Made by a program: the position numbers and the translations under genes. A DNA stretch of 64,000 nt from Gammaproteobacteria bacterium (lineage in GTDB: Bacteria > Pseudomonadota > Gammaproteobacteria > Ga0077536): contig CAXXLL010000003.1 in the NCBI GenBank assembly GCA_963662545.2, positions 96,001-160,000 on the forward strand, read 5' to 3'. Below the pieces are notes generated by a model, which saw nothing but the letters and a program-made list of their open reading frames with translations, was not told where the DNA came from and did not search any database. The stretch's first letter is position 1. Each line of letters starts with the position of its first letter. Below are positions 8,333 through 20,724 of the stretch, piece by piece.

Positions 8333-8529
8333 CTTCAGCTCTCGTTATCTAGAAATGCTTGCTTGTGTAAGCAGCATGAAATGTTGCCCCGTCACGATGG
8401 TGCTTCTTCTTGCGCACGACCAGTCGTACCGGTTTGCCGACAAGAAGTGCCGACAGTGCTCTTCGGCCCTTCGATACAAATCGGGACATATGCGTTCTCC
8501 GGCTCTCCCGGAACGCGAAGCGTAAACGA

Positions 8530-9837
8530 TCATCGGCCGCGCGGCGCCAAAATTGACTCGAGTTCCACGCACATTTCCGCGGCGCGAACGTCCCGAGAAA
8601 AGCCGCGCACAACCGCGTCGTCCACCGCGACGCGCTCGCGATGAGCGCGCAGGTCTTTGATCTCCGTACTCAGCAGAGCCCGTATATCGGCAGCGGAATC
8701 GATGGCAGCGATCGCGTCGATTCCGACGTCACGGAGAATTTGGGCGGTGTCGCCTGCCTCGTCGGTAATCGCCAATATCGGACGCCCGCTGCGCAGATAC
8801 TCGTATAGCTTGGCCGGTACCTGGAAGTTGCAATTCCCGGCCTGCACCAGCAGCAGAGCGTCTGCGGTGAGCATCTCCTCCACCGCCTCCTGATAACCCA
8901 CCGGCGGGAGCAGTTCGACGATGTCTTCGAGCGCGTAGTCGCGAAGCATGGGCTGATAGTAGGCCTCATGGCCCGACCCACGGAAGGTCACGCGCAGCGT
9001 TGCCGCCGCAATCTCGCCCGCCGCCTTAAGTTCAGACAAAGCCTCGAAAAGGGGTCGCGGATCACGTTCGGACGGGTACAGTATGCCGGAATGCAGCAGC
9101 TTGAGCGGCCCCGCATCACGTGCCGTGCGCCGCGCGGCACTGGCTTCCGCCCTCTTGAACATCGCTTCGTCATACCCGTTGGGAATCGCTCTGCCTTTGC
9201 TCGCGATGCGCTCACCGTAATGCGATTCGTAATAAATCCTCGCACCCGGCGCCGTATAGATCACGCGTTCGGCATGCCGCGCAATCCGATCCTCGATCCA
9301 TCGGAAAGCGCGCCATGTCCTCGGATCGGATGGGTAGCCTTCCTGCGCCATCGGATCGCGCATATCCGCCACCCAAGGCTTCCCTGTCAGGCGGTGCAGG
9401 ATATATCCAATAACATGTGCCGAGGCGATCGGATAGGTCGACACGATAACATCGACGCGGCCACGCGCGATTTCGAATAATCCCAACACCACCGCACTCG
9501 GCACCCACGATACCCAACGATCGGGGATTGCCATGAAATCCAGATACTTACCCTTAATCGACAAATGTCTGGTCGTATCGAGCGCCGGAGCGCGTACAAC
9601 CTTGACTCCGGCCGGCACCATTGCCTCATTTTCAGGGCGCGAAGCAAGCAAGGCGTTGCGCGTCACGGTCAACACGGTGGTCGTCCAACCGTTGCCCGCA
9701 CAATGCGCGGAGAAACTCAGTGTCCTGTGCACCCCGCTGCTCGCCTGAATTGGCGGGTAATGGTATGCGATAAAGAGTACACCGCGTCGGATGGACAGTT
9801 CGTTCATAGGCTTGGCGACATTGGCGCCGGGCAACAC
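8530..9837 (-). CDS. Glycosyltransferase family 4
   Basis: IAYHYPP, PWVADMRDP, IPNGYD, PAKLYEYL..GRPIL. Confidence 0.9.
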   Translation of the reverse strand: MLPGANVAKPMNELSIRRGVLFIAYHYPPIQASSGVHRTLSFSAHCAGNGWTTTVLTVTRNALLASRPENEAMVPAGVKVVRAPALDTTRHLSIKGKYLDFMAIPDRWVSWVPSAVVLGLFEIARGRVDVIVSTYPIASAHVIGYILHRLTGKPWVADMRDPMAQEGYPSDPRTWRAFRWIEDRIARHAERVIYTAPGARIYYESHYGERIASKGRAIPNGYDEAMFKRAEASAARRTARDAGPLKLLHSGILYPSERDPRPLFEALSELKAAGEIAAATLRVTFRGSGHEAYYQPMLRDYALEDIVELLPPVGYQEAVEEMLTADALLLVQAGNCNFQVPAKLYEYLRSGRPILAITDEAGDTAQILRDVGIDAIAAIDSAADIRALLSTEIKDLRAHRERVAVDDAVVRGFSRDVRAAEMCVELESILAPRGR

Positions 9838-10179
9838 AATACCCCTGCGACTCGCGCAGCGTGGCGAATCGGGCGCAACGTGTCGACAGGTTCCTGAAGC
9901 ATTCTCGGAATTTCAAGTACAATTCGCCGAGTCGGGACTTCGATGGTGAAAATTTGTGTCGGCATAGCGTAGGTATAGTGAATGGATTTCGCGGGTCATG
10001 CATCTTACGGCAACCCAGTCGGTCCGCGTCCTAAAGCAATCTCTCATGCCTGCCGATGGAGAAAAGAGGGATTCCGGATCCGGCCGTGTTGAGCGTAAAG
10101 TGGACGCGCGGCTGGTTTTTGGCCCGCTCTCGCAGACACCAGCTACCCCGCTTAATCATACCTAAGTAAGCCGACACCA

Positions 10180-11412
10180 ATGGAGCGACAGGGCGTGGAG
10201 CTTAGCGCAGAGAGGGTAACGGAGGCCTCTGCAGTCCATATCCACCCAGCCTTGTTCGAATGCATCGATCCGGAAGCGACGATGTACCCTGCCCCGGCGC
10301 TGCCGATTTTACCTTATCTAACCGCTTCGCAGCTTTTACGTGGGCCCCGCGACCTGCCGATTTTCCTTTCGCGACCACATCAATTTTTTCGCAATGCCCG
10401 CTCTGCCCTCGCTCAGGTATTTACCCAATGCGGCCTGCACAACAATCACATTCTCGTTCCCGGGTACATCTGCAAATCAGTTATCGAACCGATTATCTGG
10501 AGCGGGAGTACGCCGGTATTTTACAATTTGAATGACGATTTAAGCGTTGATGAGACCGATTTCGAAGCCAAGTTAGTCGATGCGGATGCTGCAATCGTGA
10601 CACATTTTTTCGGCATTCCTCAGCATATCGATCGGCTTGCCGAGTTGTGTCGCCGACAACAGGTAATCCTGATAGAAGACTGCGCCCATGCTCTTATGGG
10701 CGCCCTGAACGGCGCACCACTCGGCTCGTTAGGCGATTATTCGATCGCGAGCACCATTAAATTTTGCCCCGGGATCGACGGAGGCATACTGATCTGTAAT
10801 GGCCCCACCACTACAGACCGACGTGAACCGCGTACCACCCACGTAGATCTGCGGTCCATTGCTTCCCTGCTCGAGCGCAGCGTGACAGGTTACGTTTCGA
10901 GATACGGCAACAGATCTTATTCGAGCAATCACGTGCCGCCGGTACCGCGGTGGCGCTCAAGCCGGATGCGCGAACTCGAACAATCGCCAGGGATCGATGG
11001 CCGGTATGAATGGTTCGATCCGGAGGATATGGGAATCCCTGGCAACGAAGTGTCTCGCCGTCTCCTATTCATGCTCGATTACGATCTGATTCGACGTCGC
11101 CGCCGCGAAAATTTCCTGCACTACGTTGAGGTGTCTCGCGGGCTTGCAAGATGCCAGGCAATCATCACCGAACTGCAGGCCGAAACTGTGCCTTACATGT
11201 TTCCCCTTTTCGTCGAAGGCATCGATGACGTATTCCGGACTCTGAAGTTCCGCCGTATTCCCATCTGGCGATGGGAGCAGCAGCACGTCAACGTCCCCGC
11301 AATAGGGAAGCGATTAGGGCGAGGTTTGCTCCACTTGCCCTGTCATCAGTGCATCACCCTGAGAGACATCGATAAAATCATCGCTGCAATTCGCGATAGC
11401 TTGCAGTTCTAG
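10180..11412 (+). CDS. DegT-like PLP-dependent aminotransferase (divergent)
   Basis: VPGYIC, THFFG, LIEDCAHAL, ASTIKF(PLP Lys)..IDGG, LPCHQ; start uncertain (possibly ~10281). Confidence 0.75.
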   Translation: MERQGVELSAERVTEASAVHIHPALFECIDPEATMYPAPALPILPYLTASQLLRGPRDLPIFLSRPHQFFRNARSALAQVFTQCGLHNNHILVPGYICKSVIEPIIWSGSTPVFYNLNDDLSVDETDFEAKLVDADAAIVTHFFGIPQHIDRLAELCRRQQVILIEDCAHALMGALNGAPLGSLGDYSIASTIKFCPGIDGGILICNGPTTTDRREPRTTHVDLRSIASLLERSVTGYVSRYGNRSYSSNHVPPVPRWRSSRMRELEQSPGIDGRYEWFDPEDMGIPGNEVSRRLLFMLDYDLIRRRRRENFLHYVEVSRGLARCQAIITELQAETVPYMFPLFVEGIDDVFRTLKFRRIPIWRWEQQHVNVPAIGKRLGRGLLHLPCHQCITLRDIDKIIAAIRDSLQF

Positions 11413-11453
11413 TCCGCCAATATAGCGATCTGGTACCAGGAATTTCGCTGGCA

Positions 11454-12482
11454 ATGAAAACAACAGTAACACCTTGTTCGGATTTTGCCGCGTATAGCGG
11501 TGCATGGGATCGACTGGCCGCAGCCGGTTACGGCGTGCCAATACTGTCATCTGCCTTCGTCGAGTCCTGCCTGGAACATTTCGCGGACGGTTCCATCAAT
11601 CTCGCAGTCGTCGAAGACGAACAAGGAATAATCGCGCTCGTTTTTCTCAAGGCGCACCGGGTCGGCGTGCTGGAAACCTGGAACCCCGGACAAGCTCCTC
11701 TGGGCCTGTTCGTATTCGAACAGGACCGAGAGCTGACAGATATTTTCGATGCATTGTTCTCTCATTTTCGTGGCCGCGCCATGGTCAGTGTGACGCAACA
11801 GGATTCCAGGTTCGTGAAATCATCCCAATTCCCGGCTTGCGCCGACTTAGTTCCGTATATCGAGACGCCGTGGATCGAATGCGCGGCACCGTTCGAGGAG
11901 TACTGGAATTCCCTCGGGAAAAATATCAAGCGGAATATGCGCAAAGATTCGAATAAGCTCGAGTCGCGAAATATATCAACCAGGCTGAATATTATTATCG
12001 AAAGAGCCGAGATGGGTGCGGCCATCGACGCTCACGGCAAGCTCGAGTCGTCTGGCTGGAAAGGCGCCGCGAACAGCGCGATAGCCGGCGACAATATCCA
12101 AGGCAGATTTTATACGACTCTGCTTCAACGATTCAGTAAAAACAAAAACGGTCTCGTCTTCCAGTACTACTACGGCGATGAACTCGTGGCGTCGGACTTT
12201 GCCGTATCAAATGGCAAAAGCGTGGTAATACTGAAAACCGCCTACCTGCAGTCAAAACGAGAAACATCACCGGCCCAATTACTGCGCCATGCCTATTTTC
12301 CATTCTTGTTCGAACGGTTTGCCGGATCTAGGATTGAATTCTACGGTAAGGCACTGGAATGGCACTCGCGCTGGACCAAACAGACCAGGCCCCTTTACCA
12401 CATGAACGTGTATCGTTCGATTATGGCGCGCAGCGTTGTTCGTTCAATGAGGCGCGTTGCCAGGTCGAGTTTCACTAAATGA
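11454..12482 (+). CDS. GNAT-family acyltransferase (CelD/BcsL/FemAB-like)
   Basis: EEYWNSLGKNIKRNMRK, SGWKG, LKTAY...SPAQLL. Confidence 0.75.
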   Translation: MKTTVTPCSDFAAYSGAWDRLAAAGYGVPILSSAFVESCLEHFADGSINLAVVEDEQGIIALVFLKAHRVGVLETWNPGQAPLGLFVFEQDRELTDIFDALFSHFRGRAMVSVTQQDSRFVKSSQFPACADLVPYIETPWIECAAPFEEYWNSLGKNIKRNMRKDSNKLESRNISTRLNIIIERAEMGAAIDAHGKLESSGWKGAANSAIAGDNIQGRFYTTLLQRFSKNKNGLVFQYYYGDELVASDFAVSNGKSVVILKTAYLQSKRETSPAQLLRHAYFPFLFERFAGSRIEFYGKALEWHSRWTKQTRPLYHMNVYRSIMARSVVRSMRRVARSSFTK

Positions 12483-12827
12483 TTCTGGAGGCTTGGCGTC
12501 CTAGTCGGCTTATGCCCACTCTTTGGGCGTTCGCCGTTCCTGGCCTATCACACCGTCACGTGCATCGCCCGGGCGAAGGCGGCCCCGGCCCCGACCGTGC
12601 CCCGTTTCGCTCGTGCCCGCCGCCCGTTTGCGTCTTGCGAGCGGTCTCATCAATACTGGGCGCCGGAATTCGCCCGGATCGGTGTTGGTAGAACGTTTTC
12701 CCGATGAGCGCACCCAATCGCACTTATGTCAATCGCGGCATGGGCGCGCCGATTGGCTTTCTGGCCGTTTTTTGGCCCGTAGCCGTTTAAAGCAAGTTCC
12801 TATCCTAATTGTTATGAAGGTAATTGA

Positions 12828-14261
12828 ATGACATCTAAAGCGTGCGTCGACTTGCCCCCCGGTCTGGTAAGAGAGGGTGGATCTTATCGTGATCCCGCTG
12901 GGCACGTTTTTAACTTCAACGGTCGAATAATCAGGACCGTGACCACTCACGCCAAGGCGGAATACGAGTTCGTACGCGACTCTGAGTGTCTGAAGAAGCT
13001 AATCGAAAGGGGGTGGGTAATCTCCACCGAGGAAATCGACCCGCAACCCTTTGTCGGTGCGGATAAAGACATTACCTATGTACTTGAGCACGAGCCGGTT
13101 CCGTGGATATCGTTTCCTTACGAATGGGGATTTTCGGCGCTCAAGGCCGCTGCCTTGCTACATCTTGAAATTCAATTGTTGGCGCTGGAATATGGTGTGG
13201 CGTTATCGGACGCGAGCGCCTACAACGTTCAATTCGTCGGAGCCCGGCCGATCTTTATCGACGTACTATCTTTGCGGCGCTATCGCGATGGGGAATTCTG
13301 GACGGGGCAGCGTCAGTTCGCAGAGCAGTTTCTCAATCCGCTGCTGCTGCGTGCATTGACCGGAGTACCCCACAATGCCTGGTTTCGGGGCGCTTTGGAA
13401 GGCATCGAATCGCAACACCTCAACAGCGTCATTCCGGGTTGGCGGAAACTCGGCTGGAAGATTCTAACCAACGTAGCGCTACCTTCCTACGTACAACAAT
13501 CGGCCAGAAAGCGGTCAACCAGTAATCTTCAAAGCCTTCAGGACAAACGTCTCTCCAAAACCGGATATCACTCCCTGCTTGTAACTTTACGAGATTGGAT
13601 CGCGACGCTCCGTCCTAAGGATAGCGGTGAGACCACCTGGGAAAATTACGAAGCAGATCGGACCTACAGCTCCGCGGAGGCGAGCAGGAAGCGTGACTTT
13701 ATCAAGCAGTTCATCGAAGCGACAAGACCAAAGACGGTATGGGACCTTGGCTGTAACACCGGCGAGTTCAGTGAGGCGGCGCTCGCAGCCGGTGCTGAGT
13801 ATGTAGTGGGTTTCGACATCGATCACGGCGCACTCGATAAAGCATTTGCCAGAAGTCGTAATTCCAGTCTGGCACTTCAAGTCGTGTACCAGGATGCTGC
13901 CAATCCCACTCCGAACCAGGGATGGTTAATGCAGGAAAGAGGTTCGATATCGGCAAGAGGAGCCCCGAATGCTATCCTCGCGCTCGCATTTGAGCATCAT
14001 CTGGCGATCGGTAAAAACATACCGCTTGACCAAGTCGTTTTTTGGCTCACTTCACTTGCCCCGACCGGCGTGATTGAATTCGTTCAGAAGACCGATCCCA
14101 CTATCGAACGGATGCTTGCCCTTCGGGAAGACATTTTTGATGAATACAGTGAGGAGAAATTCAGGGCAACGTTGGAATCGTGCGCAGAGATAACCTGTGA
14201 GGAGAAGATTTCGTCCGATAACCGGATGTTATTCGGTTTCAAGACGAGATCCCACCCATGA
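12828..14261 (+). CDS. NoeA-like protein: kinase-like N-terminal domain plus class I SAM methyltransferase
   Basis: GSYRDPAG, ISFPYEWGFSALK, LSDASAYNVQF..PIFID, QF.EQFLNPLLL, VWDLGCNTGEFS, LAFEHHLAI. Confidence 0.8.
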   Translation: MTSKACVDLPPGLVREGGSYRDPAGHVFNFNGRIIRTVTTHAKAEYEFVRDSECLKKLIERGWVISTEEIDPQPFVGADKDITYVLEHEPVPWISFPYEWGFSALKAAALLHLEIQLLALEYGVALSDASAYNVQFVGARPIFIDVLSLRRYRDGEFWTGQRQFAEQFLNPLLLRALTGVPHNAWFRGALEGIESQHLNSVIPGWRKLGWKILTNVALPSYVQQSARKRSTSNLQSLQDKRLSKTGYHSLLVTLRDWIATLRPKDSGETTWENYEADRTYSSAEASRKRDFIKQFIEATRPKTVWDLGCNTGEFSEAALAAGAEYVVGFDIDHGALDKAFARSRNSSLALQVVYQDAANPTPNQGWLMQERGSISARGAPNAILALAFEHHLAIGKNIPLDQVVFWLTSLAPTGVIEFVQKTDPTIERMLALREDIFDEYSEEKFRATLESCAEITCEEKISSDNRMLFGFKTRSHP

Positions 14262-14330
14262 ATGCGACCGAGATCTACCTTCTGATCCTAACGCGTCCCA
14301 TGCATTGTCATTCGACTTAAGGATAGCAAC

Positions 14331-14582
14331 ATGAACAAAACGTCCATAATCGTCGGTCGCCTACTGGGTGTATCGCTCGCGACCTACAGTGTCGCATCGC
14401 ATGCATACCTGGACCCAGGGACAGCCAGCATTATCCTCCAAGGTACCATCGCCGCCATCGCCGGGGCGGCCATTACCCTTAAGCTCTACTGGTATCGCAT
14501 CAAGTCGATGTTCACAAAGTCTTCTGAGAAAGACGTTGAGAACACGGATTTTGAATCCGAAGAAGACCCGAACGGCGGGTAG
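14331..14582 (+). CDS. Small membrane protein with signal peptide and YLDPG motif
   Basis: RBS TAAGGA upstream; ...VASHA/YLDPGTASIILQ, hydrophobic helix, KLYWYRIK, acidic tail. Confidence 0.75.
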   Translation: MNKTSIIVGRLLGVSLATYSVASHAYLDPGTASIILQGTIAAIAGAAITLKLYWYRIKSMFTKSSEKDVENTDFESEEDPNGG

Positions 14583-15568
14583 ACAACAGTGCTTACCCGA
14601 TAGATAGACGGATTAAGGACCACCGGTAGAATGTGCTCTATCCAGCCTAACGATGCCTTGAAGGGATGTCCGGCCTAGGAACCTTGGGGGAAAGTCCCGA
14701 CGAATTTTCACGAAAGAAGTTTAAGCAACGCCGCGTCTTCCGCAGCGCCAGATGACGAAATGCGCAGTCCTAATATTTCCGAGTGTTGCATGATCCCGCC
14801 CCCATGCCGTCATACCATGGACATCGAAGTAATGCGATAACTCTCTCTAAGGTTGCGTTGTCGTTCAATAACAACGCGAGTTTCCAACCGGGACGAAGTA
14901 GTCGGCCAGTACGTTGAAAGAGATTAATCCTCATCGTTTGAAGTATCTCGAACGTCCAAAAGGCCGTGCGCTTGGTGACCGCGCCGTCAATATTCGATAC
15001 TCGCGTTTCACTTTCCCGCCGACTGTGCGGGGCGACTCATTCTCAAGCGTCCCAGTCAAAAATAATGTTGCCGGCGCTTGAAGTGGAAACAAATCCGGGA
15101 GTCCGCGGACGGCTGGGTACCTGCCGGTCTTGATCCACCCCTATCAACGTGTCGCTTCGCGAATGATGGTACGTTTCGTACACGATGTCGCACGTAAATA
15201 GATCCTGTAATTATGTTTCCACGTACACCAAACAAACGTGACGTGGCTTCCACGTGGCAAACCGTACTCGTTTGTCAGTTTCTCATGGTCAGCCCGCTTG
15301 TAAAGTTCCTAATGACCGAGTCATACCCTGTTTTTTCATTCGAAGTGATTTTAGTTCTCGTAAGTTACTTGTCGTTGGCCACGATACTTGCTTGGGCAAT
15401 GATGAAATGTCGCTGGCGATGGTTATCCTATCTTTTGTTATGTGTTTTATTGACATATAGCTTAGAGCAGCTATTCGCTGTACCGTTAAAAGTGATTATG
15501 CCTGCAGTCCTGACCGCAGTCTGGTTGTTACGCAACAACATATATCCGATTACCCTAACTGCTTTCGG

Positions 15569-15966
15569 GAACTTCACTTCAAAGTCCCAACGTCGCTCCT
15601 ATTTTAATAACGAACCATTCTCCTTGTCGGTACTGATGATCTCCATTGTGATTTTTCCACCGAGCATACCATTGACTAATTTCGATAATAATTCAGTCGG
15701 TTCTACAGCTAGTAACAAGCCATCTATCGTACATCTCGTTCTGGACGAACATATAAGTGTCAGGGCCATTTCCGACCACGCTCCAGACAGCAAGGTTATT
15801 GGCGTAATAAGGAGTTTTTATCAGAGAAACGGATTCGAATTGTTTGGCGCCGCAGTATCTAAGTATTTTTGGTCTACCGATTCATTGCCGAATCTCATGA
15901 ACTTTCACTTCAAAGTCCCAACGTCGCTCCTATTTTAATAACGAACCATTCTAGCGGCCTTGTCGG
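15569..15966. repeat. ~55-60 bp imperfect direct repeat (15569-15630 / 15899-15966)
   Basis: cacttcaaagtcccaacgtcgctcctattttaataacgaaccattct occurs twice. Confidence 0.9.
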
Positions 15967-16053
15967 AAAATCGATACTTCAATTTGCTGAACCATGCCGG
16001 CTATAAGATCAATGTGTATCAAAGCAGTTGCGCAAGCGTCTAGACTCTTGACC

Positions 16054-16305
16054 ATTGCGCACCTGATGATGCAGAAATAAACAAGTGCGTCACATATTCG
16101 GCGAACTCGATACGAAATATTGCAAACGAAAATCTAAGCGTGACAACCACCGGAGGTTTCGATCCCTTAAGCGACAAATTTTCCTTTTTATTTCAACCGC
16201 ATCGCATGCACACTACCTAGATTATTGCGCACCTGATGATGCAGAAATAAACAAGTGCGTCACATATTTGCGAAATATTGCAAACGAAAATCTAAGCGTG
16301 ACAAC
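16054..16305. repeat. ~85-95 bp imperfect direct repeat (16054-16147 / 16224-16305)
   Basis: attgcgcacctgatgatgcagaaataaacaagtgcgtcacatatt...cgaaatattgcaaacgaaaatctaagcgtgacaac occurs twice; the second copy lacks ~12 nt. Confidence 0.9.
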
Positions 16306-17101
16306 TAAAGCTCTATTGATTGTCATCAGTCAACATACGTTAAATGAAAACCTTACGGTAACAGCGGTACGGCATTACTGCGATAAGCTTCGGCCGAAAT
16401 TTACAAACGTCAAATTTCCATGTAAGAGCGAAGGGCCGATAACATCAACACTGGCGTCCTCATTACAGCTTCCACGGATAATGGAAGACGTAATATCTAA
16501 CCCTACTGGCCACCTGTTTTTTGCACATTTATTGGTGCCACACTACCCATACGTTTATAACTCCGCCTGCCACCTGAAAAACCATTTCATTGATTGGCTC
16601 GGCAAGAACGCGCTTGCCGCTCAAGAAAGTGAGGATGAAGAGTCAGCTGAATTAAGTAAGCATTTAGATCAAGTTGAGTGTCTATACGTGCAATTGCAGT
16701 CGTTTATTAATGGACTGAAGAGAAAAGGGTTTTACGATCGACTCGTGTTTATTGTGCATGGGGACCACGGTGCCAGAATTTCACTGCAAACAGAATCAAA
16801 TAGCCATGATCCCCAAATTCAAATTAATTACATCATAAAGAATTATTCGACTATATATGCGACAAAAACCTCATCTCAGAGTGCGGGTTATGAATCAAAG
16901 TTGCTACCGTTGGATACGTTGTTTGCACATACGATAAAGAAGATTATGCCCGCTGCAACGATTTTGATTGCCGCAGACGACTATGTTTATAAAGAACGGT
17001 CCGGTGCCGGGTTTGGGGGGGAAATGTTTAAGCTACAGATCCCCGAACATATCGAAGCTAGAATTCTGGATTAGGCAAAGTCTGTATAGAGCACCCGTTT
17101 A

Positions 17102-17130: not shown

Positions 17131-17495
17131 CGGTTCATGAATGGATTGCTACGGACCGATCTTCAGAGTGTATCGAAAATTGTGCCTTAGCTTAACGCCA
17201 GGTGACGCGCTCTTCATGCATGATTCGAAGGGATCGCTCAGCAGCTCAGCAAGCCGCTGGTGACTAAGACGATAGGCGGGGTTCGAGCTAACCTGTGAAC
17301 ACGCAGCGAGAATCTACAGCCGACAGCGAGCAACTCAGCGGTCTGCGCTAAGCCACAGTCGCGCAGTTCGCGCCCGACTGGATCATACACGGTTAAAAGC
17401 GTGTACCGATGAAGTCGCATTTGCATCGCGTATACTACCGCGACCAGTATGCCCCGTGCAGCCGCTGCGACCCTAAACCTGAACGCTTCTCCGCC

Positions 17496-18143
17496 ATGAT
17501 TTTCATCTGTGGAGCCATCGACTGGCATACCGCCGGCGCCACCGCAGCGGCATCGGCCGCGATGGTGCAGGCAAGACGCACAGCACGCGACCGAGCCATC
17601 TCTACCGTAAATCTGCCGGGCGCCGTTATGGCACATGCCGAGCAGAATGCGATTCGGGCCAGCGTCGGCAGCAATACGGCGCTCCTGTTTCGCCCCACCG
17701 CTGAAGACATCGCCGACGATGGTGCGCGCCTCACGGAAATGCTCGACGACTACCTGCGTTCCGGCCGCCTGCGGCCTGGCGCGATGAGCGGTGCGTTCAT
17801 GCTCGTTGTCATTGACGTCGGACAGCGACGCACGCTGCTGGCGACCGACCGGTTCGGGATCTGCCCCATGTACTATCGGGTGGCACCCGAACGCATCATG
17901 TTCTCCAGCGACCTCGATGCACTCGTCGCGCACCCGTAAATCGCGCCCGCGCTTGATGCCCAGGCCATCTACGATTACGTATTTTTTCATTGCATCCCTA
18001 GCCCACGCACGATTTACCAGGAAGTAAGCAAACTGGGGCCGGCGGAATCGCTGTTATGGGACGAAGCTGGGGCACACCGCGGGCCGTACTGGCAGCCTGA
18101 CTTTGCCGCCGAAGACGCTGGGCCTAAGGCCGCCGGGCAACGC
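17496..18143 (+). pseudogene. Asparagine-synthase-like gene, 5' part; nonsense codon and IS21 truncation
   Basis: MIFICG...GAF...LLATDRFGICPMYY; in-frame TAA at 17937 followed by IAPALDAQAIYDYVFFHCIPSPRTIY...YW up to the IS end. Confidence 0.8.
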
Positions 18144-18343
18144 TGTCAACGGCGGAGCAAAATTAGTCCACCCGGGCGGAGCAAAACTAGTCCACTTAAC
18201 GTTATGCGGTACGCAGTGTTGGGGGGTTGTCCCGGTAGTCCATAGGAGGGACCCGCGCTGCTTCGTGTAGCGCTTGCGTTACGCGGAGCGAAGCAGCGTG
18301 GGAGGTTCCTGTGGACCCACCGGGTCAACCTTGAGTTCGGTGG

Positions 18344-19114
18344 TCAAGCAGGCGTATTTGGGGATTTCCGCCGTTTTTGGCTTTGGTTGAGACGATAGCT
18401 CTCGCCGTTCATTTCCAGGATATGGACAGGGTGGGTCAGGCGGTCCAGCAAAGCCCCGGTCAGACGTTCCGAGCCGAATATCTCCGTCCACTCATCGAAC
18501 GGCAAGTTGGAGGTCACCATGATCGAGCCCCGCTCGTAGCGCTGGCTGAAGACTTCGAACAGCAGCTCGGCGCCGGTCTTCGAGAGCGGCACGAAGCCGA
18601 GTTCGTCGATGATCAGAAGGTGATACTTTGCCAGTTGCTTCTGCAGGCGCAACAGGCGTTTTTCATCCCTGGCCTCCATCAGTTCATGAACCAGGGCGGC
18701 GGCCGTGATGAAGCCGACGGAGAGCCCCTTTTGGCAGGCCGCCAGACCGAGACCGAGGGCGATATGGGTCTTGCCGGTTCCGCTGTTGCCGAGCGCGATG
18801 ATATTCTCACGACGCTCTACGTATTCGCATCGCGCCAACTCCAGAACCAGCATCTTGTTGAGCGAGGCGATGGCCTTGAAGTCGAAGCTGTCGAGGCTTT
18901 TGACGGCGGGGAACCTAGCCTGTCTGATCCGCCGCTCGACCATGCGGCGCTCACGGTCGATCAGTTCCAACTCGGTCAGACGGACAAGATACCGCACAGG
19001 GTCGGCGCCCTCGGTGGCGCATTGGCGGGCCAGCTTGTCGTATTCGCGCAGGAACGTCGGCAGTTTCAGGGTCTTGAGGTGATGGGCCAGCAACACTTGC
19101 GGCGTATCGGTCAT
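18344..19114 (-). CDS. istB: IS21 helper ATPase IstB
   Basis: GNSGTGKTH Walker A, LLIIDELG, ALLDRL. Confidence 0.93.
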   Translation of the reverse strand: MTDTPQVLLAHHLKTLKLPTFLREYDKLARQCATEGADPVRYLVRLTELELIDRERRMVERRIRQARFPAVKSLDSFDFKAIASLNKMLVLELARCEYVERRENIIALGNSGTGKTHIALGLGLAACQKGLSVGFITAAALVHELMEARDEKRLLRLQKQLAKYHLLIIDELGFVPLSKTGAELLFEVFSQRYERGSIMVTSNLPFDEWTEIFGSERLTGALLDRLTHPVHILEMNGESYRLNQSQKRRKSPNTPA

Positions 19115-20610
19115 GACGCGCCTCCACCCAACAAGCTCATATAACTGGCGGCGGCCGTGGTCGCCACGTTGGCCCGAGGCAGGTAGGGATAGATATCCAG
19201 GTCGAGTTTGGGCGGGCGTCGCTCGATACGGCACAGCACAAGGTGTTTGACGGCGTCGTAGCCGATCGCGCCCAGGCGCAGGGCGTCCTTCACCGCGCCG
19301 TGAAGCACCTCGAGATCGAAGGTCTCCAGAAGCCGAAGGACCTGGACGTATTCCCGCTTGCCGGCCTTGCCCATGCGCGCCTCCAGGAGACGGCGCAGGG
19401 TTGGGAAGGCATCAGGCAGTTCCCATCCGGCTAGCGGCGCGGCCTGATCCAGGGCACCGATCTTGTGCTCCAGCAAAGGCAGGTAGTGGATCGGATCGAA
19501 GACCCTATCTTCCCGGTCGTAGGAACGGGGGTGTCGGGCAATGATCCCGGCGCCGCAACCGATAACCACCTCGTGGACATAGCCACGGACCCAGACCTCT
19601 TGGTGGCCGTAGGCGACGGGCACGGAATAGTCATTCGTCCGGTAGCGCACCAGGGACAGCGAGTTGACCCGCGTGCCCTGCTTGTCGCACGCGTCGAACG
19701 GTGCCGGCAGTGGCCTCTTCAACGCTTCGCGGTCACGCACAAACCGTTCGCCGATGCTCTCGCGGTGGCCGCGCAGGACGTCGTCTTGCCGTTTGCGGCA
19801 TTGTTCCTCCAGGTAAGCGTTGAAGGCGTCCCAGCTCGCGAACCGGGGAAGCGGCGTCATGAAGTTCCGTCGGGCGTAGCCAACCACCCCCTCAACATTG
19901 CCTTTGTCGTTGCCCTTGCCGGGACGGCCGTAACGGTCCTCGAAGAGGTAATGGGACTGCAGTCCGCTGAACGCTCGCGTTCGTTGTCGCGTGCCATCCG
20001 GCAAGATGCGCGACACCAGGCACTTGTCGTTGTCGTAGAGAATCGATCGGGGAACACCGCCGAAGAAGGCGAAGGTTCTGTTGTGCCCGTCCAGCCAGGC
20101 CTCCGTCGTCGCTGACGGGTAGGCCGCAACGAAGCAGGCATCGCTGTGGGGAAGTGTCATGACGAAAAAATGCGCCCGATACTTGACGCCGGCGATGATC
20201 GCATCCGCCTCGCCAAAGTCCGCTTGAGCATGGCCCGGAGGATGTGACAACGGCACAAACATCTCACGCCGACGAAGGCGCCGTTCCCGAACGTAATCCT
20301 TCACGATGGTCTCTTTGCCCGTGAAGCCATGTTCGTCGCGAAGGCGCTCGAATATACGCTTCGCCGTGTGGTGCTGCTTACGGTGAACCGTTCGGTCCTC
20401 CTCCAGAATACGGTCGATGATATCCGTGAAGGGGGCCCGTTTCGGGCGTTTCGGTGGCTGGCGTCGCCGATATCCCGGCGGTTCCGAATGCCGCAGCATC
20501 TTCCTCACCGTCTCGCGCGCAATGCCAAACCGACTTGCCGCCTCTCGCTGGCTCAGACCATCAACATGGCAGGCCAGCCGAACGCGCAGATATAGGTCCA
20601 CGGTGTACAT
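19111..20610 (-). CDS. istA: IS21 transposase IstA
   Basis: HTH N-terminus, AQADFG, ILYDND, KGNVEG. Confidence 0.93.
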   Translation of the reverse strand: MYTVDLYLRVRLACHVDGLSQREAASRFGIARETVRKMLRHSEPPGYRRRQPPKRPKRAPFTDIIDRILEEDRTVHRKQHHTAKRIFERLRDEHGFTGKETIVKDYVRERRLRRREMFVPLSHPPGHAQADFGEADAIIAGVKYRAHFFVMTLPHSDACFVAAYPSATTEAWLDGHNRTFAFFGGVPRSILYDNDKCLVSRILPDGTRQRTRAFSGLQSHYLFEDRYGRPGKGNDKGNVEGVVGYARRNFMTPLPRFASWDAFNAYLEEQCRKRQDDVLRGHRESIGERFVRDREALKRPLPAPFDACDKQGTRVNSLSLVRYRTNDYSVPVAYGHQEVWVRGYVHEVVIGCGAGIIARHPRSYDREDRVFDPIHYLPLLEHKIGALDQAAPLAGWELPDAFPTLRRLLEARMGKAGKREYVQVLRLLETFDLEVLHGAVKDALRLGAIGYDAVKHLVLCRIERRPPKLDLDIYPYLPRANVATTAAASYMSLLGGGAS

Positions 20611-20724
20611 CCTCCCGCCTTCCATCTCAAAAAAGATCGAAGGCTACAGGTGGCAGAGTTTTACTCCGCCCGCGGCTGGGAAATCCCGCCGCTTCCGTGG
20701 ACTAATTTGTCACCGCCGTTCTCA

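Follow-up and report, generated by a model that had tools for sequence, protein, structure and literature searches.

A NoeA/NoeB cassette in a gammaproteobacterial exosortase-A locus and a candidate tyrosine relay for methyl-phosphate

What task could unite a kinase-like domain fused to a methyltransferase, a small membrane peptide, and a membrane enzyme of the alkaline phosphatase superfamily? The question is raised by three genes on the plus strand of a 64,000-nucleotide (nt) stretch of gammaproteobacterial DNA (the window: assembly GCA_963662545.2, contig CAXXLL010000003.1, positions 96,001 to 160,000), namely gene A (12828-14261; 477 amino acids, aa), a microprotein gene (14331-14582; an open reading frame, or ORF, of 83 codons), and gene B (15213-17074; two pieces of 241 and 329 aa as assembled), in that order. 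They had been singled out in an initial annotation, made from the letters alone, as a candidate undescribed system that makes a methyl-phosphate donor in the cytoplasm and transfers it to a surface glycan; the shared orientation and every motif named there are present in the window. The reading developed here, to which we give an even chance, is a relay in which the NoeA homologue encoded by gene A would load methyl-phosphate onto the first residue (Tyr1) of the mature microprotein, YidC would export the tail, and the NoeB homologue encoded by gene B would transfer the group to a surface glycan.

Judged by homology, the trio is a copy of the NoeA/NoeB cassette known in rhizobia, since all three genes are homologous to those of Sinorhizobium meliloti. 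Gene A and the annotated NoeA share 43% identity over 475 aa (E 3e-137), gene B in read-through form and NoeB 25% over 392 aa (E 2.4e-28), and the microprotein and the 71-aa ORF between nodL and noeA 47% over 38 aa. As far as the consulted portions of the sources go, the likeness covers all three genes both of the pSymA operon nodL-(71-aa ORF)-noeA-noeB and of the Lani_1193/1194/1195 neighbourhood, from which the window differs in its order (A-peptide-B), its exosortase-A/PEP-CTERM setting, and the serine nucleophile of gene B. In the portions of Krysinska et al. 2022 (PMC9758233) consulted, a kinase-like domain with an R/D/N/D set joined to a methyltransferase was reported bioinformatically, one neighbouring gene was found in 65% and the other in 38% of 816 neighbourhoods, and NoeB was assigned an alkaline-phosphatase, EptA/YejM-like fold, with no chemistry. 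The architecture and both neighbours being already in that paper, the word “undescribed” has to be withdrawn, and the trio is a further copy of a published cassette and not a new kind of system. Those same portions contain no mechanism, no role for the tyrosine of the small gene, and no link to TagF or YidC; the mechanism proposed here was not found in the literature searched, outside which lay subscription papers and bioRxiv supplements. What is new is the likely intactness of gene B, the invariant methyltransferase residues that may match those of WbdD, the invariant Tyr1, and the exchange of NoeA for TagF-like enzymes; the cassette itself was in print.

The protein encoded by gene A has no membrane segment predicted by hydropathy, and its whole-protein model has a predicted local distance difference test score (pLDDT) of 95.5. 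The kinase-like domain spans residues 10-262 (12855-13613, plus strand), in which the catalytic-loop D128 and N133 and the DFG-equivalent D145 were located; together with R36, they are conserved in every one of the 139 homologues aligned. As fold searches with the whole protein were filled up by methyltransferase matches, this domain was also folded alone (pLDDT 91). Its Foldseek matches are protein kinases, and each of the 50 VIA matches listed has a protein-kinase fold (Z 8.9-10.3, with some 200 residues aligned and a root-mean-square deviation, or rmsd, of about 4). Because the four residues are invariant throughout the homologues and the domain model matches only protein-kinase folds, the predicted kinase motifs are beyond chance, and the suggestion that the N-terminal half is kinase-like is borne out by the fold matches of the separate domain model.

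The methyltransferase domain follows at residues 268-474 (13629-14249, plus strand), and its S-adenosylmethionine (SAM) motif DLGCNTG, previously noticed in the C-terminal half of the protein, occupies residues 306-312. Within this domain, Y274, D306, R377, H390, H391, and R466 are invariant. In WbdD of Escherichia coli O9a, likewise a kinase fused to a class I methyltransferase, Y16, H132, H133, and R203 are required for methylating the phospho-sugar, according to the parts of PMC3482155 consulted. The profile of gene A matches WbdD at positions 292-414 against chain residues 66-178, and H390/H391 (profile 382/383) fall at most one residue from H132/H133 by hit coordinates only, a placement that assumes removal of a 13-residue tag and an ungapped match end; the structural alignment, beginning at model residue 268 against WbdD residue 11, sets Y274 beside Y16. 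By these coordinates, a Tyr/His-His/Arg set would occupy matching positions in the two proteins. MePCE (Z 16.9, 193 aligned residues, rmsd 3.3), BCDIN3D, DhpI, and WbdD (Z 15.1) are within the top 17 fold matches. Phosphate O-methylation is thus the likely activity predicted for this domain, and the methyl-phosphate donor of the initial annotation is consistent with the conserved residues, the donor chemistry itself being something we infer. As WbdD is described in the same parts of that paper, two differences stand out. The methyltransferase comes first in WbdD, whereas in NoeA the kinase comes first and the methyltransferase lies at the C-terminal end, so that gene A departs from the methyltransferase-kinase-coiled-coil order of the WbdD chain terminators; and the glycan capping by WbdD takes place in the cytoplasm and involves no transferase outside, whereas NoeA is accompanied by a microprotein and a membrane phosphotransferase.

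The microprotein consists of a signal-like leader (predicted signal peptide 14331-14405, plus strand, ending ASHA), an Ala-x-Ala, the motif YLDPG, one predicted transmembrane helix, and a basic then acidic tail. Tyr1 of the mature form (14406-14408, plus strand; head YLDPGT) stands directly after the predicted signal-peptidase site, is the only invariant hydroxyl residue, and, as judged from hydropathy, the signal-like leader, and the basic tail, is predicted to lie outside. In a set of 83 distinct NoeA-linked peptides, whose rows were anchored on the Tyr pattern after profile detection (one row mis-anchored, one truncated hit dropped), Tyr1 is found in 83, Gln12 in 82, Asp3 in 79, Ala at -1 in 78, and Ser8 in 75; for the 37 hits placed by profile coordinates only, the counts are 37 for Tyr1, 36 for Asp3, 31 for Thr/Ser6, 30 for Ser8, and 27 for Gln12. 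The leader is short or absent in some peptides (L084, L109), the leaderless form at L109 being 46 aa long and starting M-Y-L-D-P-G. The leader-bearing and leaderless forms share the layouts of M13 procoat and Pf3 coat, respectively, both of which are inserted by YidC according to the consulted part of PMC2172118.

No Pfam or NCBIfam family fits the microprotein, and a search of the ESM Atlas with a homologue returned only unnamed clusters (0.88-0.89). Among the matches listed (120 of 343) in a search for longer homologues, all were 75-123 aa and the fusions found later were missed; the motif counts from that search, biased by its word search, were not used. A tblastn search of plasmids with the window peptide gave no match, yet pSymA carries one, which marks the search as insensitive. 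As observations in their own right, a 540-aa database protein (P0117) joins the peptide to NoeA at a junction that lacks the basic helix normally present and possibly reflects a frameshift error, and the peptide gene is divergent from noeA-noeB in four loci (L002, L003, L004, L050).

Gene B has four predicted transmembrane helices before a domain of the alkaline phosphatase superfamily, in which LVLDE, PHYPY, and GDHG are present, with the first metal Asp at 15744-15746 and a Ser nucleophile at 15873-15875. Five positions are conserved without exception across 52 sequences of the family: the first Asp, a Thr/Ser nucleophile (48 T, 4 S; the window has Ser), two His, and the DHG Asp. There is no conserved His after the DHG motif. 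The family profile matches LtaS at E 4e-11 as well as sulfatase folds. The C-terminal piece of gene B stays below the curated family cut-offs (18.2 of 970 bits for LtaS, 13.5 of 825 for YejM), and two intact homologues match no NCBIfam family at 1e-8. The enzyme thus resembles LtaS, EptA, and YejM in its N-terminal membrane helices, superfamily domain, Thr/Ser nucleophile, and metal ligands; it differs in lying far under the family cut-offs and in being tied to a cytoplasmic loader and a microprotein, whereas enzymes of the LtaS/EptA/YejM type take lipid donors, namely phospholipids. The “sulfatase-superfamily transferase” of the initial annotation keeps its membrane helices and superfamily motifs and is better described as an LtaS/EptA-like phosphotransferase with a Thr/Ser nucleophile. 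Sulfatase activity was considered and rejected: the formylglycine motif at the nucleophile of sulfatases is C/S-x-P-x-R, the window reads S-T-D-S-L, and no Pro or Arg column at +2 or +4 reaches at least 60% in the 52 sequences. For an intact NoeB homologue (L043), the predicted complex with its own mature peptide and zinc scored 0.00 with an uncertain peptide fold, and is evidence neither way.

The two enzymes differ in how far they have diverged, mean column identity being 17% in the NoeB family against 41% in NoeA. Because NoeA keeps 33-55% identity over unrelated gene contexts and NoeB has so low a column identity, the substrate of NoeA looks constant and the acceptor of NoeB variable. Two or three copies of gene B accompany one NoeA in L042, L115, and L167; this multiplicity and the divergence are as expected if gene B were to set acceptor specificity.

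That the three genes form a unit can be judged from metagenome NoeA loci, taken as the best 80 of 595 confirmed loci, in which the peptide is present in 73 and gene B in 48. Where at least 2 kb is available on both sides (23 loci), the peptide is found in 23 and gene B in 22, so the genes do co-occur elsewhere. NoeA and the peptide were also found in the same 6 of 251 genomes of the phylum, and no fourth gene recurs among the 113 nearest ORFs of 36 NoeA loci (E up to 1e-12).

A different picture of the loader emerges when the peptide is taken as the starting point. Searches with its profile yielded 36 regions, a set that leaves out the genome's own loci, two NoeA loci already collected, one unpublished genome, and one contig-end fragment. 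Of these regions, 23 contain NoeA, 10 contain a TagF-like transferase but no NoeA, and 3 contain neither, with gene B in 28 by profile and one more by Pfam. The peptide forms the N-terminus of the TagF-like protein in four loci, and one locus (L162) has a peptide next to a TagF-like gene with phosphonate-type genes and a second peptide next to NoeA. Donor pathways at TagF loci include a phosphoramidate-type set (L104) and a phosphonate-type set with phosphoenolpyruvate mutase and decarboxylase (L174). YidC-like genes occur in seven of the ten TagF-only loci, three of them fused to gene B. The window peptide is most similar to three peptides linked to TagF/YidC, all from one genus (29-30 of 36 residues), and next to a NoeA-linked one (28 of 36). 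Both the NoeA-type (kinase) and the TagF-type fold put a phosphoryl group onto a hydroxyl. Because NoeA swaps with TagF-like transferases around the same peptide, usually together with a NoeB-like enzyme, the constant part of the system, read from gene content, is the peptide plus gene B, and the cytoplasmic enzyme is exchangeable. Of the two roles that had been suggested for the peptide, carrier or accessory subunit, the former gains comparative support from this swap and from the invariant Tyr1. Separately, YidC paralogs were seen within two NoeA cassettes (L161 4910-6541, L169 4229-4906), one of full length and one without the periplasmic domain.

How, then, might these parts work together? 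In the relay proposed, cytoplasmic NoeA would phosphorylate Tyr1 and methylate that phosphate, giving Tyr1-O-PO2-OCH3; the YidC insertase, here the housekeeping one as the window cassette has no paralog, would move the short tail outside; and NoeB would take the methyl-phosphate on its Ser/Thr nucleophile and pass it to a surface glycan, in this genome probably the exosortase-A/PEP-CTERM exopolysaccharide encoded around the cassette. Tyr1 as acceptor, the methyl group on the phosphate, the YidC step, and the glycan acceptor are all steps that we infer. On chemical grounds, an aryl methyl phosphodiester would be an activated donor for a transferase of the alkaline phosphatase family, like acyl-tyrosine in the Dlt/Pat systems. 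In proton spectra, methyl phosphate appears as a doublet at about 3.6 ppm (PMC9912281). The precedent is the DltX/PatA tyrosine acyl shuttle, in which, according to the parts of PMC12148441 consulted, a membrane microprotein whose outside tyrosine is invariant likewise stands between a donor in the cytoplasm and a transferase beyond it. By the same account, the tyrosine of DltX is C-terminal in FxYxxF, whereas that of the microprotein is N-terminal in YLDPG; the partners of DltX are MBOAT and SGNH proteins, none of which recurs beside the microprotein, which is paired with either a kinase-methyltransferase or a TagF-like enzyme and with an LtaS-like one; and because the loader here is a soluble protein, crossing the membrane would fall to the tyrosine itself.

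Somewhat more tentatively, the YLDPG microprotein may be the carrier in a widespread and as yet undescribed route for phosphoryl groups across the membrane, with Tyr1 loaded either by NoeA (methyl-phosphate) or by TagF-like enzymes (phosphonates or phosphoramidates activated with cytidine diphosphate, CDP), exported by YidC, and unloaded by NoeB/LtaS-like enzymes. The original proposal, that methyl-phosphate is made in the cytoplasm and transferred to a surface glycan, keeps its core in the kinase-like fold and the co-occurrence, its chemistry and acceptor being conjectural. If the wider carrier reading is true, it would give a function to noeA/noeB, unsolved since 1995, and be a phosphoryl counterpart of the DltX acyl shuttle in which a protein insertase acts as a metabolite translocase. 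The relay reduces the 30-year-old puzzle of these host-range nodulation genes to three residues, namely the catalytic Asp of NoeA, Tyr1 of the peptide, and the Thr/Ser of NoeB, and, if true, would be a general route for small phosphorus groups onto bacterial surfaces free of a lipid carrier. The cassette was found in about 2-7% of the genomes sampled from the phylum and class.

Several points weigh against this relay. Tyr1 is predicted to end up outside, whereas adenosine triphosphate (ATP) and SAM are found in the cytoplasm; either the loading would have to precede export, or a return flip would be needed, for which we know of no precedent. Single use would be costly for a peptide fused to 430-aa cytoplasmic TagF-like enzymes, for which an anchor role fits equally well. 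A fold like that of eukaryotic protein kinases is no proof of a peptide substrate, as the WbdD kinase also resembles eukaryotic kinases and, in the parts of PMC3482155 consulted, has mannose as its phosphorylation substrate. The Z-scores of the methyltransferase tie with many generic methyltransferases, the best match being ChlM (Z 17.0), and a profile of residues 335-474 alone retrieved neither WbdD nor any related solved structure among its three matches, all unrelated. Among the nearest ORFs, a glycosyltransferase, nucleotide-sugar, Wzx, Wzy, or DegT gene is found at only 12 of the 36 NoeA loci (14 if carbamoyltransferases are included), and 45 of the 47 NoeA loci of at least 9 kb are without a nearby YidC-like gene, only L161 and L169 having one. 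Several loci are kin (L149-L151, for example, belong to one genus), and the seeds of the peptide profile carried the tyrosine, so that relatives without it could be missed.

The topological paradox is avoided if the methyl-phosphate travels on a lipid. NoeA would then make a methyl-phosphate ester of a membrane lipid of the diacylglycerol or undecaprenol type for use by NoeB, with the microprotein anchoring NoeA and bridging it to NoeB, and Tyr1 either structural or completing the NoeB active site. We regard this as rather unlikely, although the EptA/LtaS/YejM layout of NoeB is that of enzymes with lipid donors, the want of a conserved His after its DHG motif leaves a metal ligand that a partner could supply, and the peptide::TagF fusions, with the possible peptide::NoeA fusion P0117, have the topology of membrane anchors. 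An anchor, however, has no need of an invariant outside tyrosine right at the cleavage site; the presence of YidC paralogs, dedicated and fused, and one peptide per loader in L162 are left unexplained; no flippase recurs among the neighbours of NoeA loci; and P0117 stands alone as a record, with a junction that looks frameshifted.

Two further readings concern what NoeA modifies, and both appear improbable. NoeA could phosphorylate and methylate a glycan or envelope precursor in the cytoplasm, as WbdD does, with NoeB and the peptide acting separately, for instance in removing or moving phosphate outside. The two predicted activities are the same as those of WbdD, as described in the consulted parts of the literature, and the methyltransferase residues would be similar, and the second trio of this genome lies near Wzm/Wzt-type ABC exporter genes; against such capping stand the domain order, reversed relative to WbdD, the apparent constancy of the NoeA substrate beside a seemingly variable NoeB acceptor, and the near-constant peptide with its TagF swap, for which it offers no account. 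That the group is something other than methyl-phosphate is about equally doubtful, be it made by action of the two domains on a small molecule (for example kinase plus N-methylation, giving a phosphocholine-like group) or the decoration of a secreted signal such as a Nod factor. The methyltransferase fold is generic, and the Nod-factor hypothesis is repeated in the parts of PMC9048898 and PMC9758233 consulted; yet no small-molecule kinase is among the 50 listed VIA matches (a weak argument), no nucleotidyltransferase recurs beside NoeA, and the cassette is widespread outside rhizobia. In the consulted part of a preprint (bioRxiv 10.1101/2021.11.23.469708, citing Ardourel 1995), a nodL mutation polar on noeA/noeB altered only the O-acetylation of Nod factors.

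To the initial annotation, gene B appeared broken in this strain. As assembled, the gene is divided into its two frames and contains misplaced duplicates of local sequence along with other extra stretches: a 60-nt insertion at 15569-15628 with a copy of 15904-15952 inside, 21 extra nt in small patches at 15903-16053 that are the source of frameshifts and stops, and a 158-nt insertion at 16113-16270 with duplicated flanks and a 59-nt end piece (16147-16205) of an insertion sequence (IS) of the ISNCY type. All of these are absent from short-read contigs. Sponge metagenome runs contain DNA of the source organism, and single contigs from four of four runs (four studies) cross the region without 15569-15628, 16113-16270, and the 21 nt between them. 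Of four further runs, two (one of them from a fifth study) also skip 15569-15628 and two have no coverage there, so that the form of the window is seen in none; RNA run X20 gave short pieces only. Omission of these 239 nt leaves a single 540-codon frame with no stop. Since the inserted stretches are absent from the short-read contigs and their omission restores one frame, gene B is likely intact and the break an artefact of assembly, so that the earlier description holds for the gene as assembled only. The ISNCY element has about 50 near-identical copies in the genome, some in tandem arrays of three (L177), and the piece in gene B is without its true end and has misplaced copies of nearby sequence on either side. 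The break is most simply read as an error of the consensus, perhaps at a site where some of the population has the IS. Real pseudogenisation was considered and set aside, as no run examined shows the inserted form and the IS piece is malformed, although the assembled sample may carry a private allele. Other broken genes of this IS-rich assembly may be similar artefacts, which affects calls of “pseudogene”.

The trio is housed in an exosortase-A/PEP-CTERM polysaccharide region, with exosortase, glycosyltransferase, DegT, and GNAT genes around the cassette; hydrolase 1 and the XrtA-system amidotransferase of the region exceed their own NCBIfam cut-offs. With a G+C content (guanine plus cytosine) of 43%, gene B differs from gene A and the peptide (53%) and from the genome (58%), which suggests that it was exchanged separately. 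A second, unbroken NoeA/peptide/NoeB trio lies about 115 kb away in the same genome (L005, G000:C3 216000-235999), its gene A being 49% identical to that of the window; all on the minus strand are its gene B (11507-13225), a glycosyltransferase gene (10146-11441), the peptide gene (9760-10026), and gene A (about 8336-9750), and its neighbours are glycosyltransferase and Wzm/Wzt-type ABC exporter genes.

Among annotated phages there was no match to NoeA; three NoeA loci lie in viral contigs, and the cassettes of L109 and L110 stand beside virus-like neighbours. Other small membrane peptides, ending in PFIYTLF or PFIYRIF (FxYxxF, DltX-like), were seen at L001 10515-10673, L030 3320-3607, and L073 391-540, in loci that also encode a carbamoyltransferase, and may belong to a parallel tyrosine shuttle for carbamoyl groups; a literature search on such a shuttle returned only papers on saxitoxin clusters. 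Downstream of the trio, within 17409-20700 of the window, the start of an asparagine-synthase-like gene (17409-17939) is followed by an IS21 element with istB at 18344-19234 and istA at 19111-20625.

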